Origin: Eledone cirrhosa
Lineage: Eukaryota
NCBI GenBank assembly: GCA_964016885.1
Contig: OZ024750.1
Location: forward strand, 1,488,001-1,552,000
DNA length: 64,000 nt
Reading direction: 5' to 3'
The notes under the pieces are model-generated. The model saw only the letters and a program-made list of their open reading frames with translations, was not told the DNA's origin and made no database searches. This document shows, in pieces, positions 7,641-58,582 of this stretch; positions within the stretch are counted from its first letter, which is position 1, and each line of letters starts with the position of its first letter. The position numbers and the translations under genes were made by a program.

Positions 7641-9572
7641 CATGTATATACCTATATATGTATATATTTATATATGGAGTATATATATACCTATATATGT
7701 ATATATTTATATATGGAGTATATATATATATATATGGAGTATATATATATATATATATATATATATAGAGTATATATATATATATATATATATTTATATA
7801 TGGAGTATATATATATATATATATATATATTTATATATGGAGTATATATATATATATATATATATATATATTTATATATGGAGTATATATATATATATAT
7901 ATATATATATATAACGAAGGAAGTGTGGTAAGGAACCAGGTGGACCATAACGCACCAAAGTACTCAATACTTGAGGTAGTAGAGTGGGTAATAGGAACCA
8001 GTAAGACCCCGACAGCTGAACTCAAGCCGTTTCGACGGCTAATTCTGGACTAAAAATATATATATATATATATATATATATATATATATATATTTTTTTT
8101 TTTTTTTTTTTTTAGTCCAGAATTAGCCGTCGAAACGGCTTGAGCTCAGCTGTCGGGGTCTTACTGGTTCCTATATATATATATATATATATATTTATAT
8201 ATGGAGTATATATATATATATATATATATTTATATATGGAGTATATATATATATGGAGTATATATATATATATATATGGAGTATATATATATATATATAT
8301 ATATATATTTATATATGGAGTATATATATATATAGAGTATATATATATATATATATATATATTTATATATGGAGTATATATATATATATAGAGAGAATAT
8401 ATATATATATATATATATATAGAGTATATATATATATATAGAGAATATATATATATATATATATATATATATATATATATATATATATATATATAGAGAG
8501 AGAGAGAGAGAATATATATATATATATATATATATATATATATATATATATATATTTATATATGGAGTATATATATATATATATATATATATATTTATAT
8601 ATGGAGTATATATATATATATATATGGAGTATATATATATATATATATATTTATATATGGAGTATATATATATATATATATATAAATATATATATATATA
8701 GAGTATATATATATATATATATATATATATATATATGAGTATATATATATATATATATATATATATATGGAGTATATATATATATATTTATATGGAGTAT
8801 ATATATATTTATATATGGAGTATATATATATATATATATTTATATATGGAGTATGTATATATATATATATATATATATTTATATATGGAGTATATATATA
8901 TATATATATTTATATATGGAGTATATATATATATATTTATATATGGAGTATATATATATATATATTTATATATGGAGTATATATATATATATATTTATAT
9001 ATGGAGTATATATATATATATATATATATATATATATGGAGTATATATATATATATTTATATATGGAGTATATATATATATGGAGTATATATATATATAT
9101 ATATAGGAATTGTAGGAGTATATATATATATATATATAGGAATTGTTTATTCATTATTTGTTTAATATTTTATATATATATATATATATAGAGAGAGAGA
9201 GAGAGTATATATATATATATATGTATATTTGGAGTATATATATATATGTATATATGGACTATATATATATATATGTATATATGGAGTATATATATATGTA
9301 TATATGGAGTATATATATATGTATATATGGAGTATATATATATGTATATATGGAGTATATATATATATATATATATATATATATATATGTATATGTAGAG
9401 TATACATATATATATATATGTATATATGTATATATGGAGTATACATATATATATATATATGTATATATTTATATATGGAGTATACATATATATATATATA
9501 TGTATATATTTATATATGGAGTATATATATACCTATATATGTATATATTTATATATGGAGTATATATATAAT
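7641..9572. repeat. ~1.9-kb (TA)n array with recurrent GGAG interruptions
   Basis: Repeating TTTATATATGGAGTATATA unit. Confidence 0.95.
7911..8173 (-). mobile_element. HHR element family X with fold-back arm, inside TA array
   Basis: Body 7911-8056, inverted arm 8113-8173. Contains the HHR 3' half GAAAC-GGCT-tgagctc-AGCT-GTC-GGGGT. Paralogues at 35073, 46801, 57647 and 58408. Confidence 0.85.
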
Positions 9573-10137
9573 TTATAACAGTAGGTGAGTCGTACTTTTA
9601 TACTACAAAATCTACGTTTATTTTCCACAGAATATATATTACTTTGAGAAAATAATTCCTATTTTTTTAAAATGATGTCTTTTTCTTCTTTGAGAATCGC
9701 TAAATATTACCTCTTGAGGAGTATTGGAGTTAATTAAGTATCTTTGCAAATAGAATTCAGTACTTTATCCTTTAATTTATTGCGTATAGTGATCCACATA
9801 AACACTAGACAAACATGCAATATATATAAACACGCATTGGTATACATACATACACAGATCTATATCATCAAAAATAAAATGGCTTCCGTACTAATAAGGA
9901 ATAATTATTTGTTCTGGAAAAACCATTGTTGTGCAACTTATTAATTTGTAAAAAGAAAATCGTAGACAATTTGTCTCTGAAATGAGACGCTTTTCTGTCG
10001 CAGGTGAATTTTAGCAAATATTTCACATTAGCAATGCTCTTAAAACTTCGAGAAATTCTTATTATTGTCACTTCTAAACCCATTAATTACGCATCTACCT
10101 GAAATTGTCAACAGTTCAGTTCTGATACAAAAAAAAA

Positions 10138-10310
10138 GCGTCGGACAACATACTTTGTGGTATATAGTTACGTCCCTTTACGTTCTAAGTTCAAATCCCG
10201 CCGAATTTAGCTTTGCCTTTCATCCTTACGAGGTTGATAAAATAAAGTACCAGTAATGCACTTGGGTTGATTTAATTGACCTGCCCCTCCCCACCAAAAT
10301 TGTTGGACTT
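10138..10310 (+). mobile_element. SINE S1 (long subfamily), 5'-truncated
   Basis: GTTCAAATCCCGCCG...TTTGCCTTTCATCCTT...AAAGTACCAGT. Confidence 0.85.
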
Positions 10311-10530
10311 ATTAAATGATAATATTAGTTATATTATTTAATCCTTCAAAATATTTGATTATTTTTCAGAATTATTTGATTAGTAATTTTGTTATAAAGA
10401 TGGTAACGAAGGCACTGAATTAGTAAACTTCTTACACCGTCCAATTTGCTTAGCTCCAACTCAATCTTCATCAATGAAATCACGACATTCAAATTATGAC
10501 AATCCTATATCAATTCATCTATAGGAGTCT

Positions 10531-10812
10531 GGAGGCTAGTGTCCTAGTGGTAAAGGTGTTCGACTTACGATCATAATGTCGTGGGTTCGATTCCTGGGCT
10601 GAGTTGCGTGTTGTGTTCTTGAGCAAAATACTTCATTTCACGTTGCTCCAGTGTACTGAGCTGTAAATGAGTACCAGCAATACCCGGGGATTTAAACTTG
10701 CAATAGACTGGCGTCCTATCCACGAGGAAGTATTGTACTCTCAGTCACTTCACACCATGAAACCGGGATAAGCCCGGCCCAACGAGCCTTCTGGTTTAAG
10801 ACAGACTTTAGA
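10531..10812 (+). mobile_element. CORE-like tRNA SINE (family S2)
   Basis: A-box CCTAGTGG and B-box GGTTCGATTCC, then TGTGTTCTTGAGCAAAATACTT resembling the CORE-SINE domain. Related to 55838 and 36500-36757. Confidence 0.75.
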
Positions 10813-11579
10813 CCTTTAAAATGTCTTAGTCGCTGAAGGAATAGCGTATACTTTTAGGGAGGCCTGGCTAGAATGCTTGCCAGAGAATAACAGAATGTAA
10901 TTCCCTAAAAGTACTCTATGATTATTTAGTGATGTTAAACTGGGAAATACACTATGTCTACCAACTAAATTCGAATTCTCGACAAGTGTACCTTTAAAAT
11001 CTTTCACAGAATGGCGTCAATACCATTTTTCGGTCAAAAGTAGGAATTTTACAATGGAAACTAGAATATACTTTGGTATTAAAACCATCACCATACACAT
11101 CCAGCACAGCTGTCACCAGCAGCAACATCCCCAAGTGGTGGTAAGGATTTGAAAGCAAACATGTTCTATTTTCCATTGGAAAATCCTTATGAATCCAATG
11201 ATACACCATTATAAAAGCAGTCATACTGAGCATGGATCAATTAATTATGTTCCCACTACATCAACATAAACTAGACATAAATGGATGGCTTGATGAGTGA
11301 GTAATTAATGTTTTAACACTATGAGCTAAGATTTATATTAGCAGCACTTCTACGATTCTCATAAATTATGCCGAAGCATGGACATGTAATGCTTAAATAA
11401 TGGTTTCATAAATGGATTTCATTAACATTTCTTTCTTGGTTTAATCCCCTAAAACATCTTTTAAAGATATATTAAAAACACATCCTATAAAAAGGAAACT
11501 GATATATTTATTCCTAATGGTTTTGCTGGAATATTTCAATTATAGTTAGAAGAAATGAAGACTGTTGGAATGAAATATG

Positions 11580-57646: not shown

Positions 57647-57844
57647 TAGGAAAAAGTATGACCCCGACGGCAGAGCTCAAGCCGTTACGACGGCTATTTC
57701 TGGAGCCCAGAAATAACTGTCGAAAGGGCTTGAGCTCTGCCATCGGGGTCATACTTTCTCCTATTTCCCACTCTACTACCCTAAGTATTGAGTACTCTGG
57801 TGCGTTATGGTCCATCTGGTTCCTTACCACAATTCCTTTGTTAT
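57647..57844 (+). mobile_element. Family X element with fold-back hairpin (57647-57763)
   Basis: Imperfect ~57-bp arms plus an ~80-bp tail. (TA)n on both sides. Confidence 0.88.
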
Positions 57845-58219
57845 ATATATATATATATATATATATATATATATATATATATATATATATATATATATAT
57901 ATATATATATATATATATATATATATATATATATATATATATATATATATATATATATATATATACATATATACAAACACAGACATATATATTATATATA
58001 TTTACAGATAATGATTATTGAATTACGGTGTCATTTAAGGTACACATGTATCATTGGAAGCCGCTCTCTGACATTTCTGAAGTAGGCTCTATTCAATCGC
58101 TTATGTCGACAATGTTTTGTAGCGGTTATGTTTTTTTCCTAGGATGTGAAAGTGATTTTATAGATATATATATAATATAGAAAACGAAGAATCAGTAATG
58201 CATCGGAACCCAGTTTATT

Positions 58220-58312
58220 ACGTATTACAATTGTTTCTCCGCCGAACAGCTCGAGGTGGGATCTTTTTGTGGATCGAACCTGACTCTGGATTCGCAAGTT
58301 CCTCAGATACGT
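58220..58312 (-). ncRNA. Hammerhead ribozyme with 62-nt stem II domain
   Basis: Minus strand: ACGTAT-CTGAGGA-[62 nt]-GAAA-CAATTG-TA-ATACGT-AATAAA. Perfect 6-bp stem I, palindromic stem III. Confidence 0.65.
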
Positions 58313-58407
58313 CTAGTGATTTCTAAGCAAAACTTTTTTGCTCAACTGGCATACCGCCTATGGACGCATCCAAGCAGCAACCTTACTACAAATATATATA
58401 TATATAT

Positions 58408-58582
58408 ATAACGAAGGAAATGTGGTAAGGAACCGGGTGGACCATAACGCACCAAAATACTCAATACTTAGGGTAGTAGAGTGGGTAATAGGAACGAGTA
58501 GGACCCCGACGGCTGAGCTCAAGCCGTTTCGACGACTAATTCTGGAGTCCAGAATTAGCCGTCGGGGTCCTACTCGTTCCTA
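58408..58582 (-). mobile_element. Family X element with internally deleted fold-back arm
   Basis: Turns at TCTGGA-g-TCCAGA. The arm is deleted between AGCCGTC direct repeats. TA flanks. Confidence 0.88.

Follow-up and report, generated by a model that had tools for sequence, protein, structure and literature searches.

Family X, a short repeat found at five loci in a 64,000-nucleotide stretch of the Eledone cirrhosa assembly (contig OZ024750.1, positions 1,488,001 to 1,552,000; hereafter the window), is best read as the 5'-truncated 3' end of an endonuclease-bearing (EN+) Penelope-like element (PLE). On this reading, to which we assign a probability of roughly 0.78, X comprises the pLTR with a predicted hammerhead ribozyme, belongs probably to the Hydra clade, and has a fixed internal end, CCTA, that is likely the nearer of two reverse transcriptase (RT) start sites. 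X most likely adds a family to a kind of element already described and does not represent a new mechanism; its architecture is already known, and the gain is incremental.

Four of the five loci consist of a main body joined head to head with an inverted, 5'-truncated copy (the arm), and all four of these paired copies carry an 80-bp tail on one side only. The main body of copy 1 (subfamily A) lies at 7912–8052 with its sense on the reverse strand (head 7992–8052, tail 7912–7991), and its arm at 8113–8173 on the forward strand; an A run, (TA)n and a T run (8053–8112) separate the two. Copy 2 (subfamily B, internally deleted) has its arm at 35073–35180 on the reverse strand and its main body at 35181–35381 on the forward strand, the latter comprising family sequence that reaches about 100 bp upstream, an internally deleted head and the tail (35302–35381). 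Copy 3 is a solo head of subfamily A (46801–46860, reverse strand), flanked on both sides by (TA)n and identical over 57 nt to the arm of copy 1. In copy 4 (subfamily C), the arm (57647–57704, reverse strand) is followed by the main body (57706–57843, forward strand; tail 57764–57843), and in copy 5 (subfamily B) the main body (58409–58547, reverse strand; tail 58409–58488) is followed by an internally deleted arm (58548–58582, forward strand). Every X copy in the window is shorter than 310 bp. Arms differ from their own main bodies by substitutions and deletions, and subfamily letters are common to both arms in all four paired insertions (chance approximately 0.013).

The sequence-only reading of this DNA had proposed a breakpoint shared by five copies, and this was borne out: all five arms end in CCTA directly on (TA)n, at 8173 and 58582 on the forward strand and at 35073, 46801 and 57647 on the reverse strand. 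The probability that five arm ends coincide by chance is about 3e-9 if 140 positions are considered; restricting the candidates to the 12 TA sites raises it to 5e-5. Details of the proposed boundary needed adjustment. The breakpoint CCTA|TTACCC stands as such, except that copy 4 reads CCTA|TTTCCC, and the continuation of the main body, given as about 80 bp to CGTTAT(A), is exactly 80 bp in four of four main bodies, followed by TA repeats. Copy 4 ends in TGTTA, so the tail end across main bodies is (C/T)GTTA-(TA)n; the (TA)n beyond the tail holds for main bodies generally, although the run that follows copy 2 is short. The arm at 46801 does end at the breakpoint, but no main body goes with it, and the tail piece adjoining it belongs to a different subfamily. 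That solo tail (46902–46981, reverse strand), which has the letters of subfamily C and (TA)n on both sides, is a sixth case that the earlier reading did not include, as it stops at the breakpoint against (TA)n. The junction is ambiguous over 3 nt, with TAT common to element and target; TAT or ATA occurs at only 3 of the 142 sense positions of X. A search for an internal repeat between breakpoint and tail gave no significant result (p 0.06).

The points at which the copies turn back had been described as variable. The variation is real, but the points cluster. The turn in copy 2, at 35180, lies about 100 bp further upstream; those of copies 4 and 5 fall only a few bases from CTGGA, and copy 1 has its A/T run at the turning centre. 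The centres of copies 2, 4 and 5 have loops of 0–3 nt. Insertion was into AT-rich microsatellite DNA, with all X ends abutting (TA)n and copy 1 interrupting an older compound TA array (7645–9570). A 13-nt unit of this array occurs five times to the left of copy 1, 18 times to its right and nowhere else in the window, which indicates that the (TA)n target is older than the insertion.

Public raw reads extend the breakpoint beyond the window, and the ends listed for this larger set do not show a random distribution of arm ends. The figures for loose ends in the four runs are those of the ends listed, beyond which there are 350 further entries, and, the library being a reduced-representation one, counts do not equal loci. 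In run X12, 3,195 of 22,869 placed reads leave X at 7991 into (AT)n (consensus agreement 0.81), making this the largest listed loose end; the only other listed end of the same orientation lies at 7923, where 523 reads give a mixed consensus. Among the ends listed for run X1, 41 contigs end at 7991 and 21 at 8000, the latter being an indel variant of the former. Relative to some 12,000 reads that cover the head, the reads ending at 7991 amount to about 27%, with about three quarters continuing into the tail, and at the tail end 89% of the read depth is retained into the TA flank.

Inner ends also cluster, at 8048–8054, in four of five window loci and in seven of nine listed opposite-strand joints. 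A fixed inner boundary at 8050 can be rejected as a rule, since, of the 1,811 reads extending to 8051, approximately 1,475 continue to at least 8054. The positions 8044 and 8054, where reads end, are sited at AATT and probably represent cut sites of the library. Loose ends behind 8054 repeat the upstream sequence of copy 2 (one contig in run X6, 61 contigs in run X1, agreement 0.6). In four listed opposite-strand joints, a main body cut inside the tail (at 7953, 7969, 7980 or 7987) is joined to a full head; these asymmetric joints comprise 3–9 reads or 2 contigs each, and later deletions could explain them. One tail-to-arm joint was present among the joints listed (35 reads, 2 starts).

The likeness to PLE pLTR-and-tail organization that had been suggested for these copies is upheld by the inverted truncated copy, the one-sided tail, the hammerhead parse upstream of the breakpoint and the (TA)n target. 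EN+ PLEs insert with a head-to-head, inverted, 5'-truncated copy and a one-sided tail, and show heavy 5' truncation (PMC8557442; PMC3846280), all of which X shares; its microsatellite target masks any target-site duplication. Unlike these elements, whose tail is usually 30–40 bp (PMC8557442), X has a tail of 80 bp and a second family, W, one of about 110 bp, and no ORF was seen in X copies. A scan of all 231 window ORFs found no RT or GIY-YIG ORF linked to X, and only one APE-RT LINE scored above curated cut-offs. Pattern scans in viral, metagenome and prokaryote collections gave no matches.

Several traits point to the Hydra clade. (TA)n is listed as a target for PLEs of the Hydra, Naiad and Neptune groups, and it is preferred by 25 of 27 listed Hydra-clade families by our own count of the table (26 if one was miscounted; one entry is blank), one of which is from Octopus. 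Hydra elements (Hydra-1_Obim, Hydra-1/2_Amil; PMC8557442 and its supplement) combine (TA)n targets with a type I hammerhead about 30–150 nt from the 3' end, and X has the same target and a predicted counterpart; this pair of traits fits the Hydra clade and also occurs in Neptune. TGAG(T/C)A lies downstream of the hammerhead in three of five Hydra 3' ends inspected by eye, as in X. Hydra consensus sequences end 29–47 nt past the cut site in 10 of 24 cases and 87–152 nt past it in 11 of 24, two distance classes that would be expected if two ends exist, but the near end of X, 19 nt past its predicted cut site, is closer than any of them. The predicted hammerhead also sets X apart from Hydra elements, having a U3-A8 core, a long helix II and a helix III that is longer than theirs. 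The 3' end of X is unlike that of Hydra-1_Obim as shown in the PMC8557442 material, and exact X motifs of 9–12 nt had no relevant match in the supplement of that paper. The Naiad clade was considered and rejected: Octopus Naiads (Naiad_Obim, Naiad_Ovul) resemble X in their (TA)n targets, inverted copies and tails, but Naiads lack canonical hammerheads, whereas X has a predicted full hammerhead, and the Naiad 3' ends shown do not match X.

Placed in front of the head, the upstream sequence of copy 2 completes a predicted type I hammerhead whose U3-A8 core has precedents in PLEs. The parse joins two copies, a join that the loose ends behind 8054 support, and no single window copy holds the whole motif; all core bases and the three helices come together only in the joined form. 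Copy 2, the only copy with the U3-A8 half, supplies the putative 5' strand of helix I (35226–35230) and the core UUGAGAA (35231–35237), both on the forward strand. Copy 1 supplies the 3' half on the reverse strand (8006–8033), with GAAA (8033–8030), helix III with a palindromic loop, GUC (8013–8011) and the 3' strand of helix I. The joined parse thus reads helix I of 5 bp, UUGAGAA, a G-C closing pair, a long helix II, GAAA, helix III of 5–6 bp and GUC, and its predicted cut site lies 19 nt before the X breakpoint. The U3-A8 core variant and long helix II have been described for PLE hammerheads (PMC4209133), and the Cercyon-type minimal hammerheads of Schistosoma PLEs resemble X in both, in a 5-bp helix I and in opposite-strand motif pairs 100–700 bp apart; the X parse differs in its helix III of 5–6 bp, capped by a palindromic loop, and in a helix II that encloses about 60 nt. 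The hammerhead fold of X is 2–6 kcal/mol above the best fold, and RNAalifold of six X heads found no compensatory changes, the alignment favouring another hairpin. Among the 150 of 233 Rfam matches listed there was no hammerhead; these were look-alikes of hairpin or microsatellite type that fell short of gathering scores.

A twin-priming model could account for the fixed end. In Poseidon of Anolis (PAc), both strands of AT-rich DNA are cut and extended in vitro, and the tail is the stretch between two RT start sites (PMC11167929); two such starts in a PLE tail would explain the fixed CCTA point. Like PAc, X has two fixed ends downstream of its hammerhead (predicted in X) and an AT-rich target. 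The GIY-YIG nuclease of the parent element would nick a (TA)n tract on each strand. From one nick, cDNA synthesis would begin at the far start (GTTA) and take in both tail and head; from the other, it would begin at the near start (CCTA), with the 3-nt TAT overlap as an aid, and cover no more than the head, the template being the same RNA or a sister one. Both cDNAs would end prematurely, in many cases at the junction between the GC-rich head and the A/U-rich tip of hammerhead helix II, and joining of their ends would yield a palindrome that carries its tail on one side. The gapped arms and the solo tail may stem from subsequent deletions in these unstable palindromes. The sequence-only reading inferred that a defined internal TA serves in joining the microsatellite, which the TAT overlap would favour; against this, PAc start sites are not homologous to the cut DNA (PMC11167929) and its tail is short, while the near end of X has TAT in common with its target. 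Only tentatively, and with more doubt than confidence, would we extend the model to Hydra-type TA-targeting PLEs at large, which might use two starts spaced 80–110 nt from each other, one on each strand of a single cut (TA)n tract, the near one guided by TAT, with twin priming alone building palindrome and tail and thousands of tiny copies in this genome recording both this and an RT stop at the helix II tip.

The strongest alternative, a real possibility but well short of even odds, also takes X as a PLE 3' end but has the truncated first cDNA fold back and be copied to CCTA, where a nuclease cuts and joins it to the other side of the (TA)n. Near-loopless centres, in copies 2, 4 and 5 and in the perfect 547-bp palindrome of W, favour fold-back, as do the subfamily letters shared by both arms in all four paired insertions, and both features of X are equally compatible with it. 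Self-priming with nuclease-mediated resolution has already been proposed (PMC3846280; PMC8557442), and a breakpoint at TA is a plausible cut site. In vitro, however, both tail ends are RT starts and both strands are cut and extended (PMC11167929); a solo head sits between TA runs at 46801–46860, and simple fold-back has no way to make the four joints in which a full head meets a main body cut inside the tail. With many short copies, a long tail and three subfamilies that label the arms, X makes second priming and fold-back testable by counting. It also suggests that tails in TA-targeting clades run to two to three times the textbook length, which bears on the curation of element ends.

It is unlikely that X is instead a short non-autonomous unit, retrozyme-like or a fixed mini-element, moved in trans by a PLE and not a truncated long element. 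The small size of all window copies and the clustered inner ends would suit such a unit, and animal retrozymes derive from pLTRs (bioRxiv 10.64898/2026.07.22.740005). Against it, copy 2 reaches 100 bp further, and the reads that pass 8051 show that the inner end is not fixed, although joints beyond 8054 are not visible on the X stretch compared with reads. A non-LTR retrozyme was rejected, as head-to-tail tandem X units are absent from the window.

A TA-inserting miniature DNA transposon, with the 60-bp heads as terminal inverted repeats and the 80-bp piece as a neighbour, is very improbable and largely refuted. Its inverted arms would begin and end at TA around a variable centre, as observed, but one end extends 80 bp beyond the inverted repeat in all four paired copies, about three quarters of head-covering reads enter that piece, the centres are self-complementary turns and not an internal region, and the predicted hammerhead parse spans the head. 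That the palindromes arose as artefacts of assembly or of fold-back in long reads, as the perfect mirror of W and an N gap in the window might suggest, is scarcely credible and is refuted for X, whose arms differ from their main bodies and whose end and strand-switch joints recur in short raw reads of another sample.

Family W (45561–46768, reverse strand, with (TA)n on both sides) repeats the anatomy of X, with a fold-back, a one-sided tail and a canonical hammerhead core. Its fold-back has no mismatches and no loop, and its CUGAUGA core lies at 46615–46729, mirrored at 45824–45710. The initial hammerhead descriptor missed W by disallowing a mismatch next to the core, and the relaxed form post-dates W, making the control post hoc; with a strict descriptor, a W-type motif occurred in 0 of 100 simulated windows. 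Separately, a 14-nt stretch is common to X and a further family, V (p approximately 0.01 among 30 comparisons), and serves as a lead only.

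Family X, a short repeat with a head of ~60 bp, an 80-bp tail and an inverted copy of the head as its arm, was placed by self-BLAST at five loci in the window, which is AT-rich animal DNA rich in TA, CA and AG repeats. The sequence-only reading had held that the arms share one exact breakpoint, CCTA|TTACCC, against (TA)n, and that the main body continues ~80 bp further. Alignment and direct reading bore out the shared end, with CCTA directly against (TA)n in all five arms, and the extension, with 4/4 main bodies running 80 bp past the breakpoint to a final GTTA followed by TA repeats; the exact motif did not hold at copy 4, which reads CCTA|TTTCCC. 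The same approach showed a tail-only piece (46902–46981) to halt at the breakpoint. Because TAT is common to junction and target, the junction position is resolved to 3 nt. Of the 142 sense positions in the family, 3 match TAT or ATA, and the chance of five arm ends coinciding is 3e-9, or 5e-5 if restricted to the 12 TA sites. Copy 1 (7912–8173) interrupts an older compound array in which one 13-nt unit occurs five times on the left, 18 times on the right and nowhere else, so the TA tract is the target, not the product, of insertion.

The breakpoint recurred when reads or contigs of four of the 14 listed sequencing runs were aligned to 7903–8065. In X12, a run of raw reduced-representation reads (~85% of it read), 22,869 reads aligned, 12,710 of them only partly. 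The largest loose end among those listed lies at 7991, the breakpoint of copy 1: 3,195 reads, or ~27% of head-covering reads, left there into (AT)n, these being counts of reads and not of loci. Among the contigs of X1, a run possibly from the source sample, 41 end at 7991 and 21 more at an indel variant of that end; X6 and X4 contributed only four and three contigs. Past the far end of the tail, depth in the TA flank is still 89%, which shows this end to be fixed too. A sister subfamily absent from the window, with the X tail and an indel-shifted head, leaves at 7997 (2,453 reads in X12, 161 contigs in X1).

The X observation is real and well supported, and known biology of Penelope-like elements (PLEs) explains it in outline, including the likeness to their pseudo-LTR-and-tail organisation. 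According to PMC8557442 and PMC3846280, a typical PLE insertion has inverted truncated copies and a 30–40-bp tail on one side; X likewise pairs an inverted truncated copy with a one-sided tail. In vitro, an Anolis element cleaves AT-rich DNA on both strands, starts reverse transcription at two internal sites spaced by the length of the tail, and can dispense with its hammerhead (PMC11167929). The two start sites offer a ready cause for the X breakpoint. In behaviour X resembles an endonuclease-bearing PLE, and it is classified as a remnant of one, with a putative parent ORF.

We commit to second priming as the origin of the palindrome with its tail: both nicks in one (TA)n tract would prime cDNA, one cDNA would begin at the far start (the GTTA end) and the other at the near start (the CCTA breakpoint), and the two truncated cDNAs would then be joined. 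In its favour are the Anolis result, the existence of a solo X head, and four joints between a main body cut within the tail and a full head, each in 3–9 reads or two contigs. Fold-back could instead make the inverted arm, as suggested by centres with loops of 0–3 nt and by subfamily letters common to both arms in 4/4 insertions (chance 0.013), although shared letters would arise equally from one multimeric template or later conversion. Turning points, described earlier as variable, do differ at copy 2 (35180), but inner ends cluster at 8048–8054 in four of five loci and in 7/9 listed opposite-strand joints, at the transition from the GC-rich head to the A/U-rich tip of a predicted helix II. 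About 1,475 of the 1,811 reads reaching 8051 continue beyond it, the visible joints being those within 7903–8065. The gaps in the arms of copies 2 and 5, like the solo tail, are most readily interpreted as deletions that arose later within palindromes.

Copy 2 retains ~100 bp beyond the head, and loose ends behind 8054 resemble this stretch in one X6 contig and 61 X1 contigs, so the stretch belongs to family X. When a script fused this stretch to the head found in other copies, the result could be read as a predicted type I hammerhead, with a 5-bp helix I, core UUGAGAA, a G-C closing pair, a long interrupted helix II, GAAA, a 5–6-bp helix III whose loop is palindromic, and GUC; from GUC it is 19 nt to the breakpoint and 99 nt to the far end. 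PLE hammerheads are described with a U3-A8 core, long helix II and motif pairs on opposite strands (PMC4209133). Several points speak against the hammerhead reading: no single window copy of X contains the whole motif, and its 5' half was seen once; the fold lies 2–6 kcal/mol above the best fold, GAAA is altered in the copy 4 arm, the Rfam matches listed include no hammerhead, and the six X heads show no compensatory changes. Family W (45561–46768), a 547-bp perfect fold-back with a ~110-bp tail on one side and (TA)n on both, matches X in build, and its arm ends at TA. Its motif, CUGAUGA...GAAA...GUC, combines 5-, 8- and 4-bp helices with a canonical core and a 91-nt helix II region, and a strict descriptor, written after the motif was seen, matched in 0 of 100 simulated windows. 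Its two ends lie 44 and ~156 nt past the cut site. W and X copy 3 lie within a single TA tract.

Among PLE clades, Hydra fits X best, and Neptune is also a candidate. PMC8557442 lists Naiad, Neptune and Hydra as preferring TA; nearly all listed Hydra families favour (TA)n, one is from Octopus, and their hammerheads lie close to the 3' end. By the supplement's numbers, omitting one entry with the motif at its 5' end, Hydra consensuses end 29–47 nt past the cut site in 10/24 cases, 87–152 nt in 11/24, between these in two and far off in one, as if curators had chosen either of two ends. Both such ends are seen in X (19 and 99 nt) and in W (44 and ~156 nt). X and three of five Hydra 3' ends carry, by eye, a TGAG(T/C)A motif, which is no more than a lead. 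Canonical hammerheads are absent from Naiads, and X does not match those Octopus Naiad ends that the paper shows. A tandem retrozyme (bioRxiv 10.64898/2026.07.22.740005) is a misfit with the inverted, single-copy form of X. Apart from the APE-RT LINE described below, none of the 231 window ORFs of at least 55 aa passing a complexity filter carries an RT or GIY-YIG domain, and five pattern scans of viral, metagenome and prokaryote collections gave no match. Family X is apparently new, and its long tail and TAT overlap are points of modest interest. Neither X nor PLE tails of 80–110 bp were found described in literature listings, in the papers cited here or in the PMC8557442 supplement, where a short match may be concealed by a line break, and Repbase or Dfam may hold the family.

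Other repeats in the window also adjoin TA runs. Family Y (6869–7639), next to the array carrying X copy 1, has 275-bp inverted arms (92.7%), a spacer, an additional ~47 bp at one end, next to a TA run, and only an imperfect hammerhead-like core. Two copies of family V (23340–23483, plus strand; 25100–25232, minus strand) face each other over a 1.6-kb TA array; combined, they form by eye a Hydra-style hammerhead, and the 3' end of V lies ~91 nt past the cut site. A 14-nt stretch of V recurs in the X tail (uncorrected p ~0.01), and the right V copy opens with a short fold-back (25226–25275). A compact hammerhead-like motif at 25315–25354, with 5- and 6-bp helices and the core CUGAAGA, is followed by a TA run, and another repeat, in two partial copies (38111–38498, 39012–39212), has imperfect inverted ends (66%) beside TA runs. 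The window also holds a 35-bp minisatellite (62899–63492; 17 copies, 97% matches) and a LINE (50422–53594) that has both an AP endonuclease and an RT domain and is interrupted by stops at ~52006 and near 53265. At least 15 pieces of a ~200-bp dispersed family, 75–99% alike and presumably an octopus SINE by appearance, which would make the host a cephalopod, lie between 1032 and 60845, one of them 12 bp past X copy 5.
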